The notes beneath the pieces were generated by a model. The model was not told the DNA's origin, did no database searches, and worked only from the letters and a program-made list of their open reading frames with translations. From NCBI GenBank assembly GCA_963755915.1, contig CAVWLP010000002.1, forward strand, positions 2,560,001-2,624,000: 64,000 bases of DNA, written 5' to 3'. This document shows, piece by piece, positions 25,096-61,420 of the stretch. Origin of the DNA: an uncultured Phycisphaerales bacterium. Its GTDB lineage: Bacteria > Planctomycetota > Phycisphaerae > Tepidisphaerales > Tepidisphaeraceae. The position numbers were made by a program, and so were the translations under genes. Numbering within the stretch: position 1 is the stretch's first letter; the number at the start of each line of letters is the position of its first letter.

Positions 25096-25252
25096 TGCGA
25101 GCCGCGCTGAAGCGCGAACTCGAAGCCATGTCCGAACGGGCCGCGCGAATCGGCGATCGGAAAGCCAATTTCACAATCTGGTTGGGCCGAATTTTTGCGC
25201 GGGAGCTTTCTCGTTGCGCGAATGTCGGCATTTCCGAAATTGGAGGAAGATC

Positions 25253-26293
25253 ATGCGTCATGTTTCCCGTATTTTTCGAGCGGTTTTTTTCTGCGGTTTG
25301 CTTCTGAAATTTGCTGCGGGGTATGCGCTGGGCCAAATCCAGGCGCCCGCGGGTTATCAGGTTGTTCCGCTGGTCGATTCTTCGGATCAGCCGTTTTCTC
25401 CGGACGGGCTGGCGGTGAGCTCGACGGGAGAGCTGGCGGCGACGAATGGGTCGACGGTTACGCTTTACAACACTTGGCAGAACGGCCGGACGGTGGTTGC
25501 CACGGCGACCGACCCTAATTGGGTTTTCGATACTGATCCGGTTTTCCTCAACAGTTCGACGATTGTCTTCGGCGAAGACGGGAACACCGACGCGCTGTGG
25601 GAAGTGAACTTCGCGACGCCGACGCCGACGATTACGCAGATTACGGCGAACAACAGTCTGCCGGCGGTTCAGGGCGTGGCGCTGATCAACTCGACCACCG
25701 CCCTGGTCTCCGGCGCGACCTCTTCGTTTGGGAGCGGCGGAGGGCTTTATCTTGACTCGGTGAATCTGACGCAGACATCCAGCAACATTTCGCCGGTGGT
25801 GCAGAACGTCGGCAGTGGGTATGTGGGCGCTGCCGGTGTGTCGCCGGGCGGGGCGGATTTGCTTTTGGAGGACTCGATCAGCGGACCTTCGCTGGTCCAC
25901 TATTACGACAGCAACACGTCGTCAGCCATTGATCTGACCGATGGCGGCGGGTCGGGCGCCTACGGAATTACCTTCGATTCCGCTGGGATCGCTTATGTCA
26001 CCACTACCGACACGATCACCGCGATCTCGGGAATCGATTCTGCCTCGCCACAGGTGAGCGAGTTTGCCTCGGATTATGCGAATTCGGAGAATCCGTTCCC
26101 TTTCCTGACGAGCATTTCGTTTACCGGCGGGGGGTTCAATCCGAATCTTCCGCTCAGCGAAGGCACCGGCGCGTTGATCTTCAACGACGCTGACGCAGGG
26201 CAGGCGTATGCGATCGTCGTTCCCGAGCCGGCATGCGCGGGACTGCTCGCGGTGCTGTGTGCCGGAGGGCTCATGCGACGGAAAACACGATGA
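25253..26293 (+). CDS. PEP-CTERM surface protein, probable beta-propeller, first gene under the B12 riboswitch
   Basis: GGAGG RBS; signal peptide; blade-like repeats PDGLAVSSTGEL / VQGVALINSTTALV / AYGITFDSAGIAYV; VPEPACAGLLAVLCAGGLMRRK. Confidence 0.82.
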   Translation: MRHVSRIFRAVFFCGLLLKFAAGYALGQIQAPAGYQVVPLVDSSDQPFSPDGLAVSSTGELAATNGSTVTLYNTWQNGRTVVATATDPNWVFDTDPVFLNSSTIVFGEDGNTDALWEVNFATPTPTITQITANNSLPAVQGVALINSTTALVSGATSSFGSGGGLYLDSVNLTQTSSNISPVVQNVGSGYVGAAGVSPGGADLLLEDSISGPSLVHYYDSNTSSAIDLTDGGGSGAYGITFDSAGIAYVTTTDTITAISGIDSASPQVSEFASDYANSENPFPFLTSISFTGGGFNPNLPLSEGTGALIFNDADAGQAYAIVVPEPACAGLLAVLCAGGLMRRKTR

Positions 26294-28902
26294 CACGCAG
26301 GCGACAATTTGCATCCTTCGGCACGGCGGCGCTTTAACAGCGCCGCCGTGCGCGCCTGCGCCGATCAGTTTTTCGCGTCCCAGGTGATCAGCACCAACAG
26401 CGGAGAGGGCGAGCAGGGAGAATTCGCCGACCCGACCGTCGCCCTCGGCGGCCCCACGGGTGAAGGCGATTTTATGCAGACGCTGAATGTTTATCGCCTT
26501 GGGTACGGTGGCTCAGCGACTTTCGGTTTCGGCGATGAGGCCATCACTGACGGGGCCGGCGCAGATTTCGTCGTGTATGCGAATGCGTTCTACGTGAATG
26601 GAGATTCCAGCGAGGATTACGCGGAGTTGAGTTATGTCTCGGTGTCCAGCGATGGGGTTCATTTTGCAACCTTCCCCAACGTCTCCCAGACCCCCCAGTC
26701 TGTCGGGATGTACGGGAACATCAACCCCGCCTGCGTCAGCGGCTACGCCGGGGTGACGCCGGTCTACGCGAACGTCACGACCAATGCGATCGATCCGTTC
26801 GATCCCGCAGTGGCCGGGGGCGATGCGTTTGATCTTTCGGAGCTGGATGATTCGCCCCTCATCGCCGAGGGATATCTGAATCTCAACGATATTCGCTACG
26901 TGCAGCTTACCGACGCGGTGAGCGGCACGAGCGTCGATTCGGATGGTCACACGATTTACGATCCGGGGCTGTGCGAAAACGTGAACTCGATCGCTGTCAT
27001 CAGCGGGGCGTATTCCTCGGGGGGCGGGGGGATCACCTGGTCGGATGGTTCGGGGGATAACCAATGGAATGCAACCAGCACAAACTGGAACGGCGGGGGG
27101 GGCATACAAATTATTCGGATGGGAGCAACGTCATTCTCGATGACAGCTCCGGGAAATATGCGGTCACTTTGAACACCGTCGTGAATCCGGGTTCAGTTAC
27201 TGTCAGCGACAGCGGCGGCGATTATTTGATAAGCGGAACGGGCGGCATCTCCGGGACGGGAAGCCTGGTGAAAACGGGCAGCCGGACGCTTACGCTGGAC
27301 ACGGTGAATTCGTACAGCGGCGGAACTTCGGTTTATGCCGGGACGCTGGTCGCTGGAGTGAGCGGTGCTCTTCCAGATGGGGAGGTGACAGTCACTGGGG
27401 GTGAGTTGCAGCTTGCGGCCGGGACGGGAATGACACAATTGAGTTCGCTCGTTGTCGCCGGGGCGGGCGTGGTCGATGTCGGGAAAAATGGATTGATGAT
27501 CGACTACGGGGACGGGAGCGATCCGATCGGAGCGATCTCGCAATACATCGCGAACGGTTACAACAACGGGGGCTGGAACGGGCCGGGAATTGTCTCGTCG
27601 GCAGCTCGATCGCCGACGGACGGTTTGTATTACGGCGTTGGATATGCCGATGGGGCTGATGGCGTCGTCAACGGGTTGGGATCGGGATTTATCGAGGTTA
27701 AATACACGCTGCTGGGGGATGCGAATCTTGACGGAGTGGTTAACGGCAGCGACTTCAGCATTCTTGCCTCCAATTTTGGGGAAGGGGTTACCAACTGGGA
27801 TCAGGGGAATTTTTTGTTCACGTCGTCGGTGAATGGCTCGGATTTTTCGGTGCTGGCGGCGAATTTCGGGCAGGGATCGACAGCGCCGGCAGACCGCGCG
27901 GCGCTGGAGGCTTTTGCGGCGGCCAATGGGCTGATGGCGGAGTTGCCGGAACCTGGTGGGGTGGCGTTGGTTGCGATTGGGGTGCTTGGGGTGATGCGAA
28001 GAAAACGCGCTTCCCTTCGGGTTGCGGCTAAACGGGGCGGTTTTACTCTCGTCGAGCTGCTCGTTGTCATCGGAATCATCGCGATTCTTGTCGGGCTTAT
28101 CCTGCCGGCGCTGGGCATTGCGCGGCAGCAGGCGCAATCTGCGTTTTGCCAGAATAATCTGCGCCAATATGTGATTGCCTCGCTGACGTATGCGCAGGAT
28201 TGGCACGGCTATTGGCCGCCGGTTGCGGTCGATATGTTGCGCACTAACCTCAACCGGTGGGGCGGCACACGCCTCACCACAAGCGATCCCTTGACATTTT
28301 TCCCCAGCACCAAGTCTCCAAACCAGTCGCCAGGTTCCTGCCTCCTGCCGTATCTACGGAACGCAGCGGTATTGTCATGTCCAAATTTTCAGCCCGCAGT
28401 GACCTCCGGCATCCTTGCGTTTGAGGCAACATCCGGCGCCTATCCCGGCGGATATGGATACAACGGTTACTATCTCGGCGCGAGCACAGACATTCCGCAG
28501 CTCGTGATCACCGCCAAGACCGCTGCGCAGATGGACGTGCTTGTGGGGAATGTTCCGGCCAAGCTGACGATGATCCGGCACTCCTCGGCGAAGATTGCCT
28601 TCGCGGATGCGGCGATGGGGCAGCAGGGAAATCTGCTGATTGAGTATTCGTTTCTTGAACCGCCGATGGATATCACTTCTTACGAATACGGGGTTGTTTC
28701 ATCGGTGATGTGGGGCGAGGCGTCGCCGTCGATCCATTTTCGGCATCGGGGATACGCCAACGTGGCGTGGGCGGACGGGCATGTCACAAGCGAGAAATTC
28801 CAGTGGACCTATCCGGGAACCAACAACTACGGAGCGAACAATAATCTGCTCCAACTGGGCTATTTCGGCCCTCAGGACAACTCGCTATTCTCGCGAGATT
28901 GA
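26290..28902 (+). CDS. BtuH-like domain + beta-strand stalk + dockerin-like + PEP-CTERM, continuing in frame into a DUF1559 prepilin (frameshifts near 26335 and 27100)
   Basis: ATGA coupling at 26290; [82 protein letters not shown]...[18 protein letters not shown]...CQNNLRQ...[15 protein letters not shown]. Confidence 0.78.
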
Positions 28903-28930: not shown

Positions 28931-29922
28931 ATGACCATCGGCTTCGCGCGGAGCCTGGCCGTGTTCGATAGTCTTGCTCTGGGAATGTTGTGGTCCACCA
29001 AGGGATTGAAGTCCTAAAGCGGAACATTCAGTCGGTATTTTTTGGGCACGGCCGGTCGGTGGATCTTCTGCTGACGGCGCTGTTCGCGCGCGGGCATGTG
29101 CTGATCGAGGATGTGCCTGGTGTCGGCAAAACGGTGCTGGCGCGGTCGCTGGCGCGGAGCCTGGACTGTAAATTCAGCCGGATTCAGCTTACGCCCGATC
29201 TGCTGCCCAGCGACGTTCTGGGGGTTTCGGTGTTCAATGGGCGGACCCAGGCCTTTGAATTCAAGCCCGGCCCTATTTTTGCCAATTTTCTGCTTGCTGA
29301 CGAAATCAACCGCACGACGCCTCGAACGCAGTCGGCCCTGCTGGAAGCGATGAGCGAAGAGCAGGTGAGCGTGGAGAACCAGACGCTGCCGCTGCAGCGG
29401 CCGTTCATGGTGGTGGCCACGCAAAATCCTTTTGAGTTTGAGGGAACCTATTATCTTCCGGAGAACCAGCTCGACCGATTTTTGCTGCGGATATCGCTGG
29501 GATATCCGGGTCGGACGGCCGAGCAGAGAATTGTCACGACGCAGCCGGGCCGGGCGGCGCTGGAGCAGCTCAAGCCGGTGATGACCGCGGCGGAAGTCGT
29601 GGCGATACAGGATATGGTGGCCCGCATTCGCATTGACTCGTCGATCGTCGATTACGTGCTGGATCTCGTCGAAGCCACTCGGCATCACGAGCAACTTCAC
29701 CTGGGGGTTTCCCCGCGCGGCGCGCTGGCGCTGACGCAGGCGATCCAGGCGACGGCCGTGGTCGGCGGGCGCGATTACGTTACGCCTGACGACGTCAAAA
29801 CCCTGTTCATTCCCGTCTGCGCCCACCGGGTTTTGAGCAAGACGTATATACACAACGGCGACGCAGTGACGACCGGGCGGGTGCTTCAGTCGATTCTGGA
29901 TATCACCCCGGCGCCGAGATAA
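28931..29922 (+). CDS. moxR: MoxR-family AAA+ ATPase
   Basis: GHVLIEDVPGVGKT, RIQLTPDLLPSD, LLADEINRTTPRTQSALLEAM, ATQNP, GVSPR; strong RBS before 28931 suggests a 5' frameshift (ORF track start 28990). Confidence 0.93.
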
Positions 29923-29948
29923 TGTCTGGTTAGAGCCGGAAGCCGGTC

Positions 29949-31244
29949 ATGGCCACGCTGAGCGATACCAACCTGTATGAACGCCTGCGGCCGCACGTGG
30001 CGGCGGTTTGGCGCTGGCTGACCGCGCAAAACGGGCACGGGGAGGACGGCGATTCCGCGACCCCCATCCGCCGCCGGCCCGGCGTCGATTTTTCGCTCAC
30101 CGGCCTCATTTACTGCGCGATGATGCTGTTCATGGGTCTGGCCGCCATCACCAGCCAGGCGAATCTTCTGTTCGCGGTTTTTGGGTTAATGATCGGCATC
30201 CTGCTGATCAGCGCGATGATCTGCCGGCTGGTGCTGATGCGGCTGCACGTCGAGCGGGTGATTCCCGAATCGACATGCGTCGGCCAGCCGGCGACGATTC
30301 GATACGATTTTCTTAACGCCAAGCGATTCTGGCCCAGTCTGTCGGTCTGCCTCGCGGAGCTGGAAGGGGCAGAGGCGTTCACGCGGCAGCCGCACGCTTA
30401 CATGCTTCACGCGGCGGCAGGAAAATCGGCGCAAGTGCCGATTACGGTAATTCCCAAGCGGCGGGGCAAGCACAAGCTCAGCAGTTTTCAGATCAGCACG
30501 AGTTTCCCGTTCGGGTTTGTGAAGCGGGCCATGATGGGCCGCCGCGACGATACGATCCTGATTTACCCCGCAATGGGCGCGGTGAGCGCGCGTCTGCTGG
30601 CGCTTTGCCAGTCGGCGGAGCGCGGCGGCGCCAACATGCAGCCGCGGCCCAACGGCGCCGATGAGTTTTACGGCGTAAAGGAATTCCGCTGGGGCGACAA
30701 CCCGCGCTGGATTTACTGGAAGCGAAGCGCCCGCACGGGCGAGCTGGTGAGCCGCGAGATGGTGCAGATCTCTCCGCCGCGCCTGCTGATCCTTGTGGAT
30801 ACGTTTCTGGAAACCGCGACGCTCAGCGGTCACGCCGACGTGGAGCGCGCCATCGCGATGGCGGCGTCCCTGGCGAACCGGGCGCTGGATTCCGGCATGG
30901 CGGTGGGTCTTTGCGCCTGGAACGGAAAGTGGACGAGCATCGCTCCACAGCGGGGGAAGCGCCATTGTCGCGACATCCTCGCGGAACTGGGCGGTTTGCC
31001 GCTGAATCGCACGGCTCCGACGGCGCAGCTCATCGAGCAGGGGCAAAACCTCCTGGCCGAAGGGGTGACCCCGGTTCTCATCACCGCCAGCGGCGCCCAT
31101 CCGACGAAGGGGGGACGATCGCGGGGCGGGATGATCGTGGTTGCCGTCAAGTCTGAACAGGCGCAAAGCTGGTTTCAGTTCGATCCGGCGGTCGATTTCA
31201 CGCGATGCTCCCCGGCCGATCAGATGTCCGCGCTGTCGAGCTGA
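29949..31244 (+). CDS. DUF58 domain protein
   Basis: Two N-terminal TMs, TSFPFGF, EFYGVKEFRWGDNPRWIYWKRSARTGELVSRE. Confidence 0.9.
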   Translation: MATLSDTNLYERLRPHVAAVWRWLTAQNGHGEDGDSATPIRRRPGVDFSLTGLIYCAMMLFMGLAAITSQANLLFAVFGLMIGILLISAMICRLVLMRLHVERVIPESTCVGQPATIRYDFLNAKRFWPSLSVCLAELEGAEAFTRQPHAYMLHAAAGKSAQVPITVIPKRRGKHKLSSFQISTSFPFGFVKRAMMGRRDDTILIYPAMGAVSARLLALCQSAERGGANMQPRPNGADEFYGVKEFRWGDNPRWIYWKRSARTGELVSREMVQISPPRLLILVDTFLETATLSGHADVERAIAMAASLANRALDSGMAVGLCAWNGKWTSIAPQRGKRHCRDILAELGGLPLNRTAPTAQLIEQGQNLLAEGVTPVLITASGAHPTKGGRSRGGMIVVAVKSEQAQSWFQFDPAVDFTRCSPADQMSALSS

Positions 31245-31247
31245 ATT

Positions 31248-33506
31248 ATGTATGACATCCGCCAATTTCGTCCGACCCTCTACGTCCTGCTGATGCTGGG
31301 CGTGACGGGATTCTGCCTCGCGGCCGAAGCGCCGGGGCTTTGGATCATGGCAGCGGGGGGAATCATGCTAAACGCCTGGTTGGTGAAGACCAATCGCTTC
31401 GCCCCGATGCCGCGGTTTCTGGCCAGCATCATTACGCTGGGCGCATTGGCGCTGGTGACGGTGGAAGTTCGGGCCGGCGGAGCGCCGCCGATCCTGACGG
31501 TGGGGCAGTTCATCGTTCTGCTTCACCTGGTAAAGCTTTTTGAGCTGCGCTCCAACCGCGACTATGCGCAGCTCCTGATCCTCAGTCTGCTACTGGTGGT
31601 GGCGGCGGCGATCAGCACGGCGAGCCTGCTGTTCGGGATCATCTTCATTATCTACATGTTTCTGTCCCTGCACTGCTCGCTGCTGTTCCACCTGAAAGTG
31701 GAGATGGACCAGGCCCGGGAGCTGTATCGCCAGCCGCAGGATCGTGTGAACCCAGCGCTGCTGCGGCAGGACGCGCGCGATCTGCCGCGCTCGATGCGCC
31801 GGCTGACCAGCCTGATCGCGCTCTTCGGGATCGCGACGGCGGTGGCGGTCTTTCTCTTCTTCCCGCGCGGCGCCGGGCAATCGATCCTCGGCCCGCTTCA
31901 GGCGCCCGCCTCGCGGGCGCTGTCCGGATTCAACGATCAGGTGGGTTTCCAGAACATCGCTAAAATCACCCGCAGCGACGATGTGGTCGCCCGGGTCGAG
32001 CTGTACAAAAGTGGCGTAAAGATTACGCATTCCATGCCGCTGCTGCTGCGCGGCTCGACGCTGGACGTTTACAGCGGCAATGACCCGGAGCGCGGGCGCT
32101 GGCAATGGTCGCGCTCGCAGTTGCTCGATCGATTCGACGACGCTGGAGATACCAGCTCGGAGGATGCCCATCGGACGCTGTACGACACCGGCGTCCCCGG
32201 AATCTGGACACAGGTGATCAACCTCCAGCCCACGGCGACGAACAAGCTCTTTGCGATGGCCGGCCCTACGGGGATTTCGTCCCCGCACGAAATGGAGATC
32301 CATTTCTCGAAGGAAGATGGGGTGCTGGAGACGGCGCCGCCGGTGCTGGAGCCGATCACCTATACCGTCACGTCGTCCGGCGAGCTGGACGTGCCCGATT
32401 CTCCGCCCGACCAGTCGGCGGAGCGGTCGGTCATCGATCCTGCGATCGCCGCCTACGTTCGCCAGGCGGGGGTGTGCGGAACCGACGCGCTCGGCCAGCC
32501 GCTGGCGCGGTATCCCACCAGTGGAAATCACATCTACGACCACCAGATCGCCGCGAACATCGAGCAGCACCTGCGGTCCAAGTTCACCTACACGACCGAC
32601 CTGACCAACCTCGGCTCCCTGGGCGATCGCGATCCGCTGGCGGCGTTTCTGACCGATTTCAAGCGCGGCCACTGCGAATATTTCGCAGGCGCGATGACTC
32701 TCATGTGCCAGAGCCTGAATATTCCCGCGCACCTGGTGGTCGGTTTCCGCTGCGCTCCCGAGGATTTCAACACCATGGGCGACTATTTCGTGGTCAAGCA
32801 GTCCGACGCGCACGCGTGGTGTGAGGTTTTCACGGGCCAGAAATGGGAAACATTCGATCCCACGTCCGGCCGAGGCGTTGAGGGTACGGGCGCGAATCCG
32901 TACGTGACGATAGTCAAGCAGTTCGTCGATTACCTGGAATTCAAATGGGCGGTCAGTGTGGTCGCTTACGACACAGGCAACCGAAAGAATTTCATGGACG
33001 GGCTGACCATCGCGATGGACAAAACCGCGGTCGACGGCAGCCAGAACCTCGCCGACTGGCTCGACAGATTCCAGAACCAGATCGCCTCGCCGACGGCGCT
33101 CAGTTGCGTGATCGCGGCCATGATCAGTTCGTGCTTTGGGCTGGTGGGATGGTTTCTGGTCGAGCGCTGGCGTCTTCATCGCCGCGCCAGACGCATCGGA
33201 ATCAGCGCCATCGACTCCGCCGAGCAGATGCGCCTGGTGCGCCAGCTTGGCTTTTATGACGATCTGCTGCGAATCCTTTCGCGATACCAGATCGAGCGTC
33301 CGCGCAACCAGACGCCGCTGGAATTCAGCCGCTCCCTGGCCTACCTGCCGGCTGATGTCTACCACGATATTTTTCGCCTGACGCAGGCGTTTTATCGCAT
33401 CCGCTACGGCGGCGGTAAACTTCCATCGCACCCCCGGCGACATCTGGCCAATGCCGTCTATCGCATCCAACTGGCGCTGGATGCGCTCCATCACGAACTG
33501 CAATGA
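31248..33506 (+). CDS. TgpA-like DUF3488/transglutaminase/DUF4129 membrane protein
   Basis: Multi-TM N-terminus; catalytic triad RGHCEYFA, AHAWCEV, WETFDPT; QTPLEF...FYRIRYG tail. Confidence 0.9.
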   Translation: MYDIRQFRPTLYVLLMLGVTGFCLAAEAPGLWIMAAGGIMLNAWLVKTNRFAPMPRFLASIITLGALALVTVEVRAGGAPPILTVGQFIVLLHLVKLFELRSNRDYAQLLILSLLLVVAAAISTASLLFGIIFIIYMFLSLHCSLLFHLKVEMDQARELYRQPQDRVNPALLRQDARDLPRSMRRLTSLIALFGIATAVAVFLFFPRGAGQSILGPLQAPASRALSGFNDQVGFQNIAKITRSDDVVARVELYKSGVKITHSMPLLLRGSTLDVYSGNDPERGRWQWSRSQLLDRFDDAGDTSSEDAHRTLYDTGVPGIWTQVINLQPTATNKLFAMAGPTGISSPHEMEIHFSKEDGVLETAPPVLEPITYTVTSSGELDVPDSPPDQSAERSVIDPAIAAYVRQAGVCGTDALGQPLARYPTSGNHIYDHQIAANIEQHLRSKFTYTTDLTNLGSLGDRDPLAAFLTDFKRGHCEYFAGAMTLMCQSLNIPAHLVVGFRCAPEDFNTMGDYFVVKQSDAHAWCEVFTGQKWETFDPTSGRGVEGTGANPYVTIVKQFVDYLEFKWAVSVVAYDTGNRKNFMDGLTIAMDKTAVDGSQNLADWLDRFQNQIASPTALSCVIAAMISSCFGLVGWFLVERWRLHRRARRIGISAIDSAEQMRLVRQLGFYDDLLRILSRYQIERPRNQTPLEFSRSLAYLPADVYHDIFRLTQAFYRIRYGGGKLPSHPRRHLANAVYRIQLALDALHHELQ

Positions 33507-49243: not shown

Positions 49244-49279
49244 GGGCCCAAAGCCTAACCCGTGTTGATTGAAAAGCAA

Positions 49280-51055
49280 TTAAGCGCGCCGGCGGCGACA
49301 GACCAGGATCAATCCGCCGGCGGCCAGAATTCCCACGGAAATTGGCTCGGGCACGTCGGCGGTGAGGCCATTGGCGATGGCGAACTGGTCGAGGGCCTGG
49401 ACATCCGCGCCGCTGTCGCCCTGGCCGAAGTTGGCCGCGAGGGCGCTGAAATCGGATCCGTTCACGCTGGAGGTGAAGAGGAAATTGCCCTGGTCCCAGT
49501 TGGTGGCGCCGGATCCGAAGTTGGCGGCGAGGATGCTGAAGTCTGAGCCGTTCACGGAGCCGTCGAGGTTCGCGTCGCCGAGCAGGGTATATTTCAGCTC
49601 GATCTGGCCGCTGCTCAGGCCCGTGACGACTTTGTCGGCGCCGTCGGCGAAGCCGATGCCATAGTGGCTGTTGGCTGCCGCGGCGGAGCTGATGATTCCC
49701 GGGCCGTTCCAGTGTCCGTTATTGAATCCGGTGAGGAGATATCCGCGGATGGCGGCGATCGGATCGCTGCCGCTGGTGTAATTGAGGATGATGTGGTTGT
49801 TTTCGATATCGAGCGCGGCGGTTGAGGCGATGGTGAGCGACGAGAAGGTTTCCAGGCCGGTGTTGGTCGCGAGTTGGACGAGGGCGGAATTGTTGATCGT
49901 CAGGGGCTCATTTGTCGAGAGGGCGTTCTGGGCGGCGACGATCAGATCTCCGGCGTCCACGATGGTTCCGCCGGTGAAACTGTTTTTCGTGGAGATCGTC
50001 AGGGTGCTGGTTCCCTCCTTGAGGATGTTGGCTCTTCCGCTGATCGCGCCGGTTCCGGTGATGGTAAAGTTATTGGTGTTGCTGTTTACCGTGACGAGAT
50101 CGGGAGAGACGGTGGTGTTGAGGGTTACGCTGGTGGGAATGCCGGCGCCGTCGGCGAAGGTGACGAAATCGGGGTCGGCGTAGGTGGTGCTGGAGCCGTT
50201 GGTCCAGTTGGCGGTGCCGGTGTTCCAGGCGGCGCTTGAGCTTCCGGTCCAGGTGATGGAGGGGGCGATGTAGACTGCCAATACGCTGGAGTCGAACGTC
50301 GTATTGTTGGGGATTCCAGTTTGGCCATAGGTTGGGTCATTGGCGGGAGAGCTTGTCTCGTAGTACCAATCGTTCACTCCACCACCCTGGGTAACAAGGG
50401 GCTCAAGTCCAACGAGGCCTGTACTGACAGTCTGATATTGCAACTGGCTGAAAAACGCGCTGGCCGCGCTGGGGGAGGCCGTCGCGCCGCCCCACAACGC
50501 CAGGCGTTGAATGCCCGATGGAGTCTGCGAACTCGGCGAGGTGTAAGTTAGTTGGTAGATGAACTGGTTATCTACTCCCACCATTCCGTTGCCCGCTTCG
50601 ACGTCCCCGGTTTCGGTAATCGTATTTGAAGAGACGTTCTGGAGGACATCGGTGGCGTCGTATAAGCCACTGCCGAGACTAGCCCCCAAGACCGGCGCAA
50701 GCATCGATGCGGTCGTATCGGTCGACGCAACCTCGTATTGGCAACTGGCCAGCCCGAGATACGCCGGTTGTCCCGGATCCGCCGCGTCGCCATTCACGTT
50801 TCCGGCCAGGATAGTAGATACGCCGAATTCAAAATAATCGCCCAAAGGAACGAAGACGGTCGGCGAAGTCGGCGAGAGGGAGACGGTCTGGGCGCCGCTG
50901 AATGACGAATTCGTGGAGATTTCCCCGGAGATGAAGTAAGTGCCAAGCGTAACCTGCCCATCGGCGGTACGGGCGTAAAGTCCGGCAACACTTGCGACAG
51001 CAAGAGACAAAGCGGTCCTAGATAAAGTCGCCTTGGGGGACTTGCGCATCCTCAC
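49280..51055 (-). CDS. PEP-CTERM exoprotein: unknown N-domain + autotransporter-associated beta-strand repeat + dockerin-like tail
   Basis: LSLAVASVAG signal; [58 protein letters not shown]. Confidence 0.85.
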   Translation of the reverse strand: MRMRKSPKATLSRTALSLAVASVAGLYARTADGQVTLGTYFISGEISTNSSFSGAQTVSLSPTSPTVFVPLGDYFEFGVSTILAGNVNGDAADPGQPAYLGLASCQYEVASTDTTASMLAPVLGASLGSGLYDATDVLQNVSSNTITETGDVEAGNGMVGVDNQFIYQLTYTSPSSQTPSGIQRLALWGGATASPSAASAFFSQLQYQTVSTGLVGLEPLVTQGGGVNDWYYETSSPANDPTYGQTGIPNNTTFDSSVLAVYIAPSITWTGSSSAAWNTGTANWTNGSSTTYADPDFVTFADGAGIPTSVTLNTTVSPDLVTVNSNTNNFTITGTGAISGRANILKEGTSTLTISTKNSFTGGTIVDAGDLIVAAQNALSTNEPLTINNSALVQLATNTGLETFSSLTIASTAALDIENNHIILNYTSGSDPIAAIRGYLLTGFNNGHWNGPGIISSAAAANSHYGIGFADGADKVVTGLSSGQIELKYTLLGDANLDGSVNGSDFSILAANFGSGATNWDQGNFLFTSSVNGSDFSALAANFGQGDSGADVQALDQFAIANGLTADVPEPISVGILAAGGLILVCRRRRA

Positions 51056-51312: not shown

Positions 51313-53181
51313 ATGCACGGCGTTTTTGTACACCGGTCGCGGGGCCTCCATCCACGGCGCCGCGCGGTTATTCCCAGATTCCTGAAACTCGCCTGCCCGG
51401 CGATCGCGCTGGTGGATCTCGGTGCATCCGCTGCAAGTGCCTTAACCGAATCCACGAACTGGTCGGGCTATGCCGCCACGTCCGGCACTGCCTTTACCGA
51501 TGTTTCGGATACCTTCGTGGTTCCGTCGCTGACGGCGCCTTCGTCGGGGACGAGTTATTCATCGTTTTGGGTCGGTCTGGACGGGGCAACGGGCACGTTG
51601 GATCCGACGGTGGAGCAGTGTGGTATCCAGGGAACGATCAGCGCGGGGCAGTCTTCCGGGACATATTACCCGTGGTTCGAATTTGCCCCAGCCGGCCAGG
51701 AGGAGATCGAAAACTTCAGCATTAATGCCGGCGATACGATCCATCTGGATGCGACCTATGAACCCTCCGAGAGCACGACTGGAAATTACGCGTATTTGTT
51801 CGACATAGACGACGAGTCGACCGGCCAGTCGTTCGACCAGACGGAGTTCACTTCGACTGAGGATCAGCGTTCCTCGGCGGAATGGATCGCTGAGGCGACA
51901 TCGCTGAAGCAGGGCACGATGGTTGTGGTGCAAACCCTGGCCAACTTTGGGAGCGTGACATTAACGAACTGCGTGGCAGCGCTTAATGGGGGAGCCGACC
52001 AGTCGGCGGCATCGCTTGGCGGCACCGGATACGAAATAATCCAGGCAAATGAAGTGGTGGCGATTCCCAGCAATCTGAATTCGACCGGCGAGATATTCAC
52101 GGATTACTGCGCGTCAAGCCTGCCGAACCTGGTTTGGAAGGATTCCACCGGAAATAAGCAATGGGATTTAACCAGTGCGAACTGGAATGACGGGACGGCC
52201 ACCACGGCTTACGGGGATGCCTGCCCGGTTACGTTTAACGACAGCAACGGGGGCAGCGGAAATTATGCGGTGACCCTCAACGCCCTGGTAAGCCCGGCAT
52301 CGGTGACTGTCAGCAACAGTTCGGGCAATTACGTGATCAGCGGCTCCGGGGGAATTGCCGGCGGGGCGGCGCTGAGCAAGTCCGGGTCGGATACGATCAC
52401 GCTTGATACGGCGAACTCGTTTACCGGAGGCGTGACTGTCAGTGCCGGGACGCTGGTGGCGGGCGTGAGCGGGGCACTGCCGGATGGGGCGGTGAAGATT
52501 ACCGGTGGTACGCTGCGGCTGGGCACTAACACCGGTAACCCGACAGTTTCGTCGCTGTCGATTTCCAGCGGGGAGATGGACATTGGCAACAACACGCTGT
52601 TCATCACGTACGGATCGAGCGATCCGATTTCGACGATCGCGGGGTATATCAAGACGGGATATAACTCCGGCAACTGGAACGGGACCGGGATTATCTCCTC
52701 CAGCGCCCGGACAAAAACCAACGGCCTGGTGTATGGCGTGGGGTGGGCGGATGGAAAGGATAATGTAGTCAGCGGGTTGAATTCGGGGACGATCGAGTTG
52801 AAATACACGCTGCTGGGGGATGCGAATCTGGATGGGACGGTGAACGGGAGCGATTTCAGCATCCTCGCGGCGAATTTTGGTTTGGGGGTGACGAACTGGG
52901 ACCAGGGTAATTTTTTGTTTTCGTCTTCGGTGAATGGGTCGGATTTTTCGGCGTTGGCGGCGAATTTTGGGCAGGGGGATTCCGGGGCGGATGTGGGCGT
53001 TTCTGTGGCCGACATTGCGGCGCTGGATGTGTTTGCGGAGGCAAATGGGTTGGCGTTGCCGAGCATAGGGGTGGTGCCGGAGCCTGTTAGCGCCGGGATA
53101 GTGATCCTGTCCGGACTTGGCATGCTGGCCCTGCGGCGGCGGCGCGGACGAGCCGGGCGAATTAGCCCGAATCAACTTTGA
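51313..53181 (+). CDS. G1-family glutamic peptidase with beta-strand stalk, dockerin-like tail and PEP-CTERM
   Basis: ESTNWSGY, SSFWVGLDG, VEQCG (catalytic Q), YYPWFEF, SSAEWIAE (catalytic E), LANFGSV; VPEP..RRRR. Confidence 0.87.
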   Translation: MHGVFVHRSRGLHPRRRAVIPRFLKLACPAIALVDLGASAASALTESTNWSGYAATSGTAFTDVSDTFVVPSLTAPSSGTSYSSFWVGLDGATGTLDPTVEQCGIQGTISAGQSSGTYYPWFEFAPAGQEEIENFSINAGDTIHLDATYEPSESTTGNYAYLFDIDDESTGQSFDQTEFTSTEDQRSSAEWIAEATSLKQGTMVVVQTLANFGSVTLTNCVAALNGGADQSAASLGGTGYEIIQANEVVAIPSNLNSTGEIFTDYCASSLPNLVWKDSTGNKQWDLTSANWNDGTATTAYGDACPVTFNDSNGGSGNYAVTLNALVSPASVTVSNSSGNYVISGSGGIAGGAALSKSGSDTITLDTANSFTGGVTVSAGTLVAGVSGALPDGAVKITGGTLRLGTNTGNPTVSSLSISSGEMDIGNNTLFITYGSSDPISTIAGYIKTGYNSGNWNGTGIISSSARTKTNGLVYGVGWADGKDNVVSGLNSGTIELKYTLLGDANLDGTVNGSDFSILAANFGLGVTNWDQGNFLFSSSVNGSDFSALAANFGQGDSGADVGVSVADIAALDVFAEANGLALPSIGVVPEPVSAGIVILSGLGMLALRRRRGRAGRISPNQL

Positions 53182-58753: not shown

Positions 58754-61420
58754 GTGGCACTAAAAAGGGAGCGTGGGGCGGTTGCGATTGCTGGTGCGGC
58801 GGCGGGTTTTTTCTATCCGGGCTTGCGATCTTTTGGGCAGACCGCCGTCAACGTCAGTGTAAACGCCAATTCACCGATCACGTATGCCGACGGGGCGGCG
58901 ATCGCCACGATGCCGGCCACGGGGCTGGGGCTCTGCACGTCGGTTTATGCCAACATGTGGGGCGATCCGAATTTGCCTGGCGACATTGCCGCATCGGGTA
59001 TACAGATGTCGCGCTATCCTGGCGGAAGTTATGCGGACATCTACAATTGGTCATTAAACACGGCCAATGAGGGCGGGTACGTGGGGCCGGATGCGAACAT
59101 CGGCAATTTCTTCAACGTCATCAATGCCGCCGGGACGCAGGCGATGATTACCGTAAATTATGGCTCCAATACAACCGACACGATGGGTGCGCAGCCGCAG
59201 GAGGCGGCGGCGGAAGTTGCCTATGCGGATGCGCAGCCCGGAATTTACGGAACCAATTCGGACGTAAATCTGGGGAACGATGCGGCGGGGGTGGATTGGT
59301 ACACGGCGGGATATTGGGCACGATTGCGCGCTTCCACGCCGGCCGAGTACGAGCAGTGGGCGACCGCCGCCGGCGATTACAATCCGGCTTATTCCTTTCT
59401 GGCGATCGATCATCCGCAGCCGGAAAACATCCAGTACTGGGAAATCGGCAACGAGATCGGCGGCAACGGCTACTATGGGGATCAGTGGGAATACGATCTT
59501 CACGCACCCTATTACGAAGGCAACACGAACAGCAACGTCGGACGCTACATGAATCCGGCGCTTTCGCCGACGGCTTACGCGCAGAATCTCGTTCAGTTCG
59601 CAACGCTGATGAAGCAGGTCGATCCCAACATCAAAATCGGCGCCGGCTTTGATGCGGAGGCGAACAGCACCAACGATGCAGCCATCCTTCAAACTGCCGG
59701 GAACTACATCGACTTCGGTATCATTCACTGGTATCCGACGGGCTCGCTTCCGAGCATGATCACCAGCACGCTGCCGCAGGAGATCGCCAATCTGCGCACG
59801 AGCGTCGCCAACAATACGGACAAGGGTTACAACGGGATTGAGATCGACGTCACCGAATTCGGCGACGGAAATTCCTCTCCTCCGACGATCGAAAACGCGC
59901 TCTTCGCTGCCGACGCGTATGCGACCGGCTTCGAAAACGGGCTGCAAAACATGAATTTTCAGGAGATGAGCAGTTCGCATTATCTGAACGGGAACGGCAC
60001 CGCCGGGAATCCGGGCGAGGTTTATTACGCCATTCAGATGGTGAGCAAATTCGCGAGCACCGGCGATACGTTTGTCTCGACAACGTCGAGCAATTCGTCG
60101 CTGCGCATTCATGCGGTGACAAATCCGGATGGAACGGTGTCCCTGCTGCTGATCAACGACGGCACTACGTCGGCGGACAACGTCACCGTGAGCCTGAACG
60201 ATACCGTGCCGGTCGGCGGGAGCGGCACGCTTTATCTTTTCGGCAATTCGAATATCGGGACGACCGACACTCCGCCAAGCACGCAAACGCTCACGAATCT
60301 TGGGCCGTCATTTTCGCTTTCGATTCCCGCGGAAACCATCGGCACGCTGGTGATTCCCGAAGGGAATATTTACTGGGACAACGCCGGTGGCAGCGGCGAT
60401 GGAGTCACCTGGAACAGCGTGAGCCAAAACTGGCTGGAAGGTTCCGAGCCGCTGAGCTTCACGCCTGGCGTGGCAGTTGCGTTTACCGACACGAACAATG
60501 GTCACTATGGCGTGAGCCTCACCGCTACCGTCAGTCCGGCGTCGGTCCTGGTGAACAATAGCTTGGGCAACTACACGATCAGCGGCCCGGGGTTCATCGC
60601 GGGAACGGGAAGTCTTACCAAATCCGGCAGTGCGTCGCTGACGCTCAGCACGGTCAACACGTATACCGGCGGGACCGTCGTCAACGCCGGCGCCCTGATC
60701 GTCGGTGCAAACGGTGCGCTGCCCAATGCCTCGGTCACGATCAATGGGGGAACTCTCCGACTGGGAAACGGCACCGGGACTGCAAGCGTCTCGTCGCTCT
60801 CCATTTCCGGCAACGGAACCCTCGACATCACCAATAATCAATTGCTGATCGACTACGGCAACGGCCCGGACCCGATGGCGACGATCATTTCATACATTCA
60901 CAGCGGCTGGAACAGCAACTGGGGCAGTTCCGGAATCATTTTTTCTTCTCCGGAAGTCGTGAACGGCCACGAATACGGTATAGGCTGGTCGGACGGGAAA
61001 GACGGCGTGGTTTCGGGGCTTTCGTCGGGTCAGATTGAATTGAAATATACGCTGCTGGGTGATGCGAATCTGGATGGAACCGTCAATGGATCGGATTTCA
61101 GCATCCTCGCGGCGAATTTTGGGTTGGGGGTGACGAATTGGGACCAGGGGAATTTTCTGTTTTCGTCTTCGGTGAATGGGTCTGATTTTTCGGCGTTGGC
61201 GGCGAATTTCGGGCAGGGGGACAGCGGGGCGGATGTATCCATTTCGCAAGCCGATATCGCGGCGGTGGACGCGTTCGCCACAGCGAATGGATTGCCTTTG
61301 CCTACGATTGCGGCGGTGCCCGAACCTGCGTCGACCGGGGCGTTGTCGGCGATTGCCGGCGTGCTGGTCTTGCGAAGGCGGTGCGCGAATTTCCAAAACC
61401 TCATATACAATTTCTTGTAA
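58754..61420 (+). CDS. Clan GH-A glycoside hydrolase (GH51/GH44-like) with stalk, dockerin-like tail and PEP-CTERM
   Basis: RYPGGSYADIYNW, ITVNYG, YWEIGNE (acid/base), IHWY, VTEF (nucleophile); GGAGG before GTG 58754; VPEP..LRRR. Confidence 0.83.
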   Translation: MALKRERGAVAIAGAAAGFFYPGLRSFGQTAVNVSVNANSPITYADGAAIATMPATGLGLCTSVYANMWGDPNLPGDIAASGIQMSRYPGGSYADIYNWSLNTANEGGYVGPDANIGNFFNVINAAGTQAMITVNYGSNTTDTMGAQPQEAAAEVAYADAQPGIYGTNSDVNLGNDAAGVDWYTAGYWARLRASTPAEYEQWATAAGDYNPAYSFLAIDHPQPENIQYWEIGNEIGGNGYYGDQWEYDLHAPYYEGNTNSNVGRYMNPALSPTAYAQNLVQFATLMKQVDPNIKIGAGFDAEANSTNDAAILQTAGNYIDFGIIHWYPTGSLPSMITSTLPQEIANLRTSVANNTDKGYNGIEIDVTEFGDGNSSPPTIENALFAADAYATGFENGLQNMNFQEMSSSHYLNGNGTAGNPGEVYYAIQMVSKFASTGDTFVSTTSSNSSLRIHAVTNPDGTVSLLLINDGTTSADNVTVSLNDTVPVGGSGTLYLFGNSNIGTTDTPPSTQTLTNLGPSFSLSIPAETIGTLVIPEGNIYWDNAGGSGDGVTWNSVSQNWLEGSEPLSFTPGVAVAFTDTNNGHYGVSLTATVSPASVLVNNSLGNYTISGPGFIAGTGSLTKSGSASLTLSTVNTYTGGTVVNAGALIVGANGALPNASVTINGGTLRLGNGTGTASVSSLSISGNGTLDITNNQLLIDYGNGPDPMATIISYIHSGWNSNWGSSGIIFSSPEVVNGHEYGIGWSDGKDGVVSGLSSGQIELKYTLLGDANLDGTVNGSDFSILAANFGLGVTNWDQGNFLFSSSVNGSDFSALAANFGQGDSGADVSISQADIAAVDAFATANGLPLPTIAAVPEPASTGALSAIAGVLVLRRRCANFQNLIYNFL

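Follow-up and report, generated by a model that had tools for sequence, protein, structure and literature searches.

A PEP-CTERM sorting signal running into a prepilin signal in one reading frame: a candidate envelope polyprotein of an uncultured Phycisphaerales bacterium

The window analyzed here is a stretch of 64,000 nucleotides (G000:C2:2560001-2624000) from the genome of an uncultured Phycisphaerales bacterium (G000), a soil planctomycete; the genome comprises 6.63 Mb in 3 contigs at a completeness of 81%. On its forward (+) strand, to which all window coordinates refer unless stated otherwise, translation of the open reading frame (ORF) 27064..28902 (612 amino acids) takes a PEP-CTERM sorting signal straight into a prepilin signal (27943-28113), and the entire joint lies within this frame without a stop codon. 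The gene fusion is real and conserved, and its product is probably a Sec-inserted precursor with two membrane helices that prepilin peptidase would cut into an ordinary PEP-CTERM protein and an ordinary pilin. An earlier note on this DNA had read the arrangement as a possible polyprotein processed by two membrane proteases; the comparisons below support that reading at the level of sequence, the proteolysis itself being a prediction.

The joint between the two signals

The PEP-CTERM signal (27943..28008) consists of LPEP (27943-27954), a hydrophobic stretch of 14 residues (27955-27996) and RRKR, and is matched by the hidden Markov model (HMM) TIGR02595 with 17.8 bits against a cut-off of 16 (segment 27850-28020, aligned over 27946-28008). 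The hydrophobic stretch includes an in-frame ATG (27994..27996), 15 codons before the last leader residue. It is followed by a basic loop of 15 residues rich in Arg and Lys (27997..28041), which serves as tail to the PEP-CTERM signal and as leader to the prepilin signal at once. The predicted prepilin peptidase site lies between Gly(-1) and Phe(+1) (28039..28044), where the sequence reads GG/FTLVE, so that Gly at -1, Phe at +1 (28042) and Glu at +5 (28054) are all present. The prepilin-type N-terminal cleavage/methylation motif (28030..28101) is recognized by PF07963 (residues 323-346 of the 612-residue ORF; 25.2 and 27.2 bits, cut-off 21.2) as well as by TIGR02532 (21.0 and 23.0 bits, cut-off 16.3). 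The uninterrupted frame from one signal to the other that the earlier note had described therefore stands, with the HMMs of both signals above their cut-offs. In the fused reading the PEP-CTERM signal is not C-terminal, since 297 more in-frame codons come after it, and it would become so only upon the predicted G/F cut. Nor is the prepilin motif N-terminal, starting at about residue 585 of about 865, and a short basic N-terminal leader would exist only if translation began at the ATG at 27994.

The joint was compared over the stretch 26900-28400 with Logan contigs of four public runs (X1-X4) from one study, sequenced on an unrecorded platform. These runs are possibly the source of the window assembly, so the contigs are a check on the assembler and not on the biology. 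The sole contig across the whole joint, X2 record 15, covers 27842-28134 with 0 differing letters and 0 gaps. Partial overlaps are equally free of differences in X4 record 23 (27640-28013), X1 record 8 (28014-28400) and X3 record 21 (27785-27982). Coverage by X3 and X4 is patchy over parts of the stretch, and the holes there carry no meaning. An RNA run, X5, contained just 0.06 of the words and gives no information on expression. An indel or stop at the joint, which the earlier note had held fatal to its reading, appears in none of the read-derived contigs. Its warning of indel errors in the assembly applies elsewhere in the gene, where frame breaks lie near 26335 and at 27102 and not at the joint, and the break at 27102 is contradicted by a read-derived contig.

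The same fusion in other genomes and databases

Among 41 related genomes, the joint without a stop recurs in G001 (93% identity), G011 (57%) and G014 (57%), and G003 has an in-frame TAA followed by an ATG in place of the fusion. The sequences of G014 (loci L006 and L019) are unpublished; the points that they make are carried equally by the public P0011 and L054. Three of 80 loci from species-representative genomes are fused, namely L052 (G001), L053 and L054. A sample of 301 genomes of the class, which gives a lower bound as 8 candidates per genome were scored, adds a fusion in G259 with VPAP replacing VPEP. Furthermore, the complete genome record titled Fontivita pretiosa strain B-254 holds a paralogous fusion (locus L133), an ORF of at least 812 residues in an open frame given as 978 codons, with HAF repeats, a dockerin-like repeat, IPEP followed by 15 hydrophobic residues and an Arg-rich loop, a prepilin motif that scores above the cut-offs, and a DUF1559-like domain.

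Protein databases contain many more examples. When 5.8 billion proteins were searched for longer sequences related to the pilin half, 99 were obtained, 40 of which match a regular expression for the fusion (PEP, hydrophobic residues, a cluster of basic ones and the motif of the pilin), and 36 were judged credible. P0054, P0058, P0077 and P0082 were dropped as fusions, their supposed helix being too short, too long or charged. P0100 and P0101, among the best near-length matches, are contig-end fragments of the same fusion. The fused sequences come from JGI, ENA, NCBI and Logan, with several clusters represented by 2-5 contigs each. A profile search covering 1.84 billion representatives gave, among its best 150 proteins, 5 that span the joint (P0001, P0011, P0019, P0220 and P0286). 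Of the 146 proteins that this search added, 100 terminate with a PEP-CTERM signal at the place where the pilin of the fusion starts, which makes the fusion a minority form of a very large family. The occurrence in independent genomes on which the earlier note had staked its reading is thus documented in many genomes and metagenome contigs.

Both signals are conserved across this material. In an alignment of 17 full-length fused orthologues that are 41-87% identical to P0001 (alignment A1), P554, E555 and P556 of the first signal and F586, T587, E590, L591 and L592 of the second are invariant in all 17, which covers hallmark residues of both signals. The features pointed out in the earlier note, an Arg/Lys cluster shared by the two signals and a G/F site with Glu at +5, are seen in the window. 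In the 43 rows matching the regular expression, position -1 is occupied by G (23 rows) or A (20), every row has Glu+5, and the median length is 15 residues for the first helix and 10 for the loop. In 22 of the 43 the loop does not exceed 10 residues, and it often counts only 4-8 (e.g. RRRRA). The leaders of stand-alone relatives also have a median of 10 residues (n = 108), matching the length of the fused loop. The PEP-CTERM HMM alignments reach the last model positions and stop 1-2 residues before Phe+1, so that the expected end of a normal PEP-CTERM protein coincides exactly with the start of the mature pilin. The sole indel between the window and G001 at the joint is an insertion of 24 bases in the loop of G001, and it keeps the frame.

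The possible start codon at 27994 is of more limited distribution. The ATG lies 15 codons before the cut site in the window and 23 codons before it in L052 (G001), and no ATG is found at the equivalent place in L053, L054 or L025. A Met in the loop occurs in 3 of the 43 rows, all three of them dubious. L054 has no ATG, GTG or TTG between the PEP and the cut site, and the start-type codons of L053 (ATG and TTG), L025 and L133 are confined to the first helix. The earlier note had cautioned that the ATG at 27994 might start the pilin separately. The codon is indeed present and in frame, but the caution is weakened by the lack of a loop Met in most orthologues and of any start codon in L054; it remains a possible separate pilin start in the lineage of the window only. 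Irrespective of events at 27994, no stop interrupts the frame upstream of it, and translation must therefore produce the fused chain.

A quick maximum-likelihood tree (LG+G4, with support from the Shimodaira-Hasegawa-like approximate likelihood ratio test, SH-aLRT, only) was built from 132 pilin domains, namely those of the window, P0001-P0046 and P0100-P0189, minus rows that lacked the motif or had a domain outside 200-420 residues. The window falls into a clade of 21 fused and 3 stand-alone rows (SH-aLRT 97), with further PEP-fused lineages in other parts of the tree. Explaining the fused label takes 8 changes, compared with a mean of 25.8 for shuffled labels, and none of 500 shuffles gave so few. 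From the clade and the small number of label changes it follows that the fusion is old within the clade of the window and has been gained or lost several times.

The searches also returned related architectures. A second fusion of PEP-CTERM to pilin-like type, with an 870-codon frame reading DVPEPVSAALLGLCSSSLFLKRRRPDRKSASRPG/FSYIHLLALIAIVAL at the joint, lies outside the window at about 1184000-1185688 (-) of G000:C3. P0021-P0040, some of them named Candidatus Hydrogenedentes, are about 20 proteins of one clade with a LIC_13355-like start followed by a helix and a basic loop without PEP; residues resembling P-x-P-L often precede the helix, and G/FTLIELL and a DUF1559 domain follow. This clade may represent the same architecture with another sorting motif or none. 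Seven further proteins (P0047, P0049, P0052, P0061, P0064, P0067 and P0088), one of them from a complete genome named Rosistilla ulvae, have LacI/GntR-type regulator and periplasmic-binding-like domains (PF00356, PF00392, PF00532 and PF13377) N-terminal to the prepilin motif and DUF1559; some of this group, in which a Met directly precedes the leader, may result from the merging of gene calls. Among metagenome-assembled genomes of Verrucomicrobiota and Kiritimatiellia, L080, L081 and L086, loci with long open frames ahead of the pilin, were rejected as fusions, as the translation upstream in the pilin frame is Arg-rich off-frame sequence of the adjoining gene. In L080, L081, L083, L086, L092 and L096, the stretch separating the upstream gene from the pilin contains repeated short units, whose translations in the pilin frame read ...FYVERKNF..., ...FHxVEK... 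and ...FSTxWK...; the units look like an intergenic repeat family.

Proposed processing and its alternatives

The probable reading named at the outset starts from the open frame, its conservation and the conserved signals, and both of the enzymes that it calls upon are encoded in the genome. There are three matches to PF09721 (Exosortase_EpsH; 112-166 bits), one of which also scores 115 bits with TIGR02602 (cut-off 105.55). A PilD-type peptidase is represented by a frame of 400 amino acids on C3 (A24_N_bact 130 bits, Peptidase_A24 23.9 bits), and a second A24 match lies on C2 (75.5 bits). The membrane topology, the two cleavages and their order are deduced as follows. The precursor would consist, in order, of a Sec signal peptide, a LIC_13355-like domain, a PATR beta-helix, dockerin-like repeats, the PEP-CTERM signal, the basic loop, the class III signal and a DUF1559/H-X9-DG domain. 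Sec would export the first domain, the PEP-CTERM helix would stop the transfer and the pilin helix would restart it, so that the two helices would span the inner membrane as a hairpin whose Arg/Lys loop faces the cytoplasm, and the two large domains would lie outside. Prepilin peptidase would then cut after the Gly or Ala at -1 on the cytoplasmic face. This single cut would yield a PEP-CTERM protein with its usual basic tail, now open to processing by exosortase, and a mature pilin that begins with Phe. A 1:1 ratio of surface protein to pilin would follow from the single ORF only if the pilin has no start of its own.

Several observations weigh against this processing. To our knowledge there is no precedent for a prepilin peptidase site placed behind another membrane helix and hundreds of residues, and a literature search found no prepilin peptidase precedent for such an internal site. 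An AlphaFold2 (AF2) model made with alignment A1 is poor (mean predicted local distance difference test score 53.6), with confidence in the beta-rich PATR region only, and backs the hairpin no further than the two predicted helices. The PEP-like segment of the Fontivita fusion (L133) has no match to the PEP-CTERM HMM and is PEP-like by eye. In the lineage of the window, the ATG 15 codons before the site makes separate initiation possible, and because a frame break lies within the signal peptide of the window copy, that copy could be a pseudogene. The second fusion of G000 has His instead of Glu at +5, so a working class III signal is not kept in every such fusion. TIGR02595 is at or above its cut-off in the junction segments of 6 of 11 relatives and is not listed for the other 5. 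Finally, both cleavages are themselves predictions.

The last three of these points, together with the existence of about 20 relatives of another clade (P0021-P0040) with a plain helix and basic loop before the pilin, which implies that the PEP is not needed for the architecture, also speak for a product that is real but stays uncut. It would be an inner-membrane protein with two helices and two outside domains, in which both motifs, PEP and class III, are inherited leftovers with no role beyond membrane anchoring. This is unlikely, however, given the strictness with which the motifs are kept: PEP, Phe+1 and Glu+5 are invariant in the 17 orthologues down to 41% identity, and -1 is solely G or A and Glu+5 universal in the 43 rows, none of which a mere anchor would need. 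Glu+5 of a type IV pilin subunit is believed to be the partner of the free N-terminus of its neighbor, and such pairing requires cleavage.

A different account holds that the pilin is made mainly from an internal start, the ATG at 27994 in this case, and that read-through is a tolerated by-product of a lost stop. The ATG at -15 in the window and at -23 in G001 would give a normal-looking leader (MRRKRAS...G/F), P0002 has MLRKRRG/F, and relatives include split versions with a stop and a new start, such as L011 (...GRKRREA, a stop, then MIRL...) and ten more split pairs in the same frame. Yet ribosomes translating the surface protein would meet no stop and run into the pilin, the loop Met is missing in most orthologues and L054 offers no ATG, GTG or TTG in the relevant interval, the fusion has been kept through divergence to about 55% identity, and no site resembling AGGAGG is seen by eye before 27994. 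We regard this account as rather improbable. An assembly artefact or dead gene, in which an error-prone long-read assembly merged two neighbors through an indel or the loss of a stop, has in its favor the frame breaks near 26335 and 27102 in the same gene, a genome of 81% completeness in 3 contigs and, in P0010 (G011), a join of first and second module that resembles such an error. This explanation is already largely refuted and has very little left to recommend it: the read-derived contigs equal the joint exactly, the same joint occurs in dozens of independent contigs (JGI, ENA, NCBI and Logan) and in one complete genome, and the frame is kept across the 24-base indel.

A broader interpretation, which can be offered only tentatively, is that the cytoplasmic Arg tail of PEP-CTERM proteins in these bacteria is a general joint that doubles as the positively charged beginning of a following prepilin or Sec signal, with the fusion and the gene pair together acting as a Rosetta stone for a partnership of pilin and cargo. 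P0011 (NCBI), P0017 (JGI) and L054 have three modules, with an extra module upstream. In P0011 and P0017, the first PEP-CTERM signal (VPEP...LLLLRPTRRRNR) is continued directly by a second stretch resembling a signal peptide (...IAAAAAMPVAGILPGIASA/SQFYAS), and a LIC_13355-like domain, a second PEP-CTERM signal and the pilin come after it. These upstream modules suggest that the basic PEP-CTERM tail can join to more than one kind of following signal. The first joint of the three-module P0010 (G011; L003/L053, nucleotides ~640-700) was set aside as probably a frameshift artefact, the other frame reading ...CCWPRRRGAKR before a stop codon, TGA, which overlaps the next ATG as in the window. If the interpretation is true, one ORF could give rise to two or three proteins of the envelope, set free by as many as three membrane proteases (signal peptidase, exosortase and prepilin peptidase), and DUF1559/H-X9-DG pilin-like proteins would be the cognate partners of individual exosortase cargo, e.g. 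cargo-specific pseudopilins that carry cargo to the surface.

The whole gene, its surroundings and known systems

Judged against the orthologue P0001 (861 amino acids), the whole fused gene spans 26290..28902 and encodes about 865 amino acids, in three pieces separated by two frame breaks. In a tblastn comparison, residues 1-15 of P0001 correspond to 26290-26334, residues 18-272 to 26339-27103 and residues 271-861 to 27097-28899, and the stop codon is at 28900-28902. The Sec-type signal peptide (26290..26362) is interrupted by a TAA at 26335-26337, which is preceded by a shortfall of 2 bases relative to G001. The signal peptides of the fused orthologues are uninterrupted and N-terminal, ending in ...A/DQFF or ...A/AQFF with no lipobox. 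G001 has an extra C of its own near 26335, and this GC-rich spot may be error-prone in both long-contig assemblies. The second break lies at a run of eight G (27095..27104), where the X1 contig (26900-27958) has one extra base behind 27102, together with 27103 C>G and 27104 A>C. The same extra base is carried by G001, and it unites the frames 26309.. and 27064..; the break at 27102 is probably a consensus error of the assembly.

Behind the signal peptide lies a LIC_13355-like extracytoplasmic domain (26363..26854), matched by NF033170 with 63.5 bits (E 1.7e-17), which is below the family cut-off of 120 and indicates a domain-level likeness only; the domain was found in 10 of 12 fused relatives scanned. 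An autotransporter-type beta-strand (PATR) repeat follows at 27262..27357 (TIGR02601 29.4 bits, cut-off 19.85; PF12951 33 bits, cut-off 27), and two dockerin-like repeats are recognizable in the sequence at 27712..27876. PF00404 is precomputed for orthologues and is not listed for the protein of the window at E<=0.01. The mature pilin-like protein would occupy 28042..28899 and is of the DUF1559/H-X9-DG kind, with the H-x9-DG motif at 28744-28779. Its HMM scores in the window are below cut-off (PF07596 18.2 bits against 23.3, TIGR04294 16.4 against 19), and PF07596 is precomputed for many orthologues of the fused protein; 7518 near-length relatives of the pilin half were found at E<=0.001. A complex prediction for the outer domain of an orthologue (A1 24-553) with the globular part of the pilin (612-861) scored 0.00 and counts neither way, and a search of the ESM Atlas with P0001 gave no usable match.

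Upstream of the fused gene, another PEP-CTERM protein is encoded at 25214..26293 (TIGR02595 16.7 bits, no other family match), and this protein is 58% identical to the first module of P0010. The stop of its gene overlaps the start ATG of the fused gene (ATGA), which suggests that the translation of the two may be coupled. Directly downstream (28990-33506) lie genes for a MoxR-type AAA_3 ATPase, a DUF58 protein and a TgpA-like transglutaminase. In the syntenic Fontivita locus L062 (2662-4728), the pilin is a separate, overlapping gene, and the same MoxR-type ATPase follows the split pair. The upstream ORF of L062 has an internal VPEPSSVSWLGSLALLARRR and then AAALAAALAMALLLARGTATA/D, like a PEP-type signal joined to a second signal peptide; this internal segment has no match to the PEP-CTERM HMM and is PEP-like by eye. 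Three more paralogues of the PATR/dockerin-like/PEP-CTERM half occur in the window at about 49244-50200 (-), 52204-53163 (+) and 60464-61390 (+), and dozens of copies of this family are present in G000.

Across G000, 161 ORFs with 100 codons or more have a PEP-CTERM-like motif no farther than 12 residues from their end (about 180 with longer tails), and 6 of the 63 pilin-like genes have the end of a PEP-CTERM gene at most 400 bases upstream. Among the fetched loci, which were all picked by likeness to the query and include some duplicates, 33 entries have the end of a PEP-CTERM gene at most 300 bases from a pilin. In 20 of them the two frames differ, 10 share the frame but are separated by a stop, and 3 are fused. 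A preference of split pairs for the same frame, suggested by 4 of 5 in G000, was abandoned, as the larger set gives 10 of 30, the level of chance. By matched query ranges, few of which were checked, both the LIC_13355-like start and the pilin end of the query have counterparts in about 39 of the 80 genome loci. They come from Phycisphaerae, Pirellulales, Verrucomicrobiota, Kiritimatiellia and Fimbriimonadaceae, and those of Verrucomicrobiota are neighbors, not fusions.

PEP-CTERM proteins and DUF1559/H-X9-DG proteins are among the largest and least understood families in Planctomycetota and related phyla, and a conserved fusion, along with a split neighbor pair in many genomes, ties the two systems together functionally. 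Should the proposed cuts take place, two different intramembrane enzymes would act at one shared loop of a bacterial envelope polyprotein, and prepilin peptidase would be shown to accept an internal site. The presence of a fusion in Fontivita pretiosa B-254 makes the hypothesis testable in culture. A full-text literature search, which subscription journals lay outside, found no paper on a fusion of PEP-CTERM with a prepilin or DUF1559 protein, and database names call the fused proteins either 'PEP-CTERM sorting domain-containing' or 'prepilin-type ...'.

The first half of the joint resembles the PEP-CTERM/exosortase system (Haft et al., 2006; PMC1569441) in its PEP motif, hydrophobic helix and Arg-rich cluster, but the known signal stands at the extreme C-terminus by definition, and here it is internal, with about 290 residues behind it. 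The passages of that paper on pilins or fusions mention fusions of EpsH with CAAX-protease domains and do not describe a PEP-CTERM-pilin fusion (Haft et al., 2006).

The second half shares G or A at -1, Phe+1, Glu+5 and a hydrophobic alpha-1 helix with the class III signal of type IV pilins and type II secretion pseudopilins. Class III signals are cut and N-methylated by A24 peptidases of the PilD/GspO type, and known prepilin leaders are short N-terminal peptides of about 5-30 residues. In the fusion, by contrast, the leader would be a whole secreted protein and a membrane helix, with only its last 4-15 residues in the cytoplasm. The C-terminal half is akin to the 'PulG-like' DUF1559/H-X9-DG proteins, a group much enlarged in Planctomycetota and their relatives, by similarity and by the H-x9-DG motif; typical members stand alone with leaders such as MRRA/FTL, whereas that of the window is fused and scores just below the HMM cut-offs. 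Modular type IV pilins with extra domains exist, e.g. in Streptococcus sanguinis, and they likewise combine a pilin and a functional module in one polypeptide. In those proteins, however, the module is C-terminal and stays attached, whereas here it is N-terminal to the leader and comes with a membrane helix and a sorting signal of its own, and cleavage is expected to detach it.

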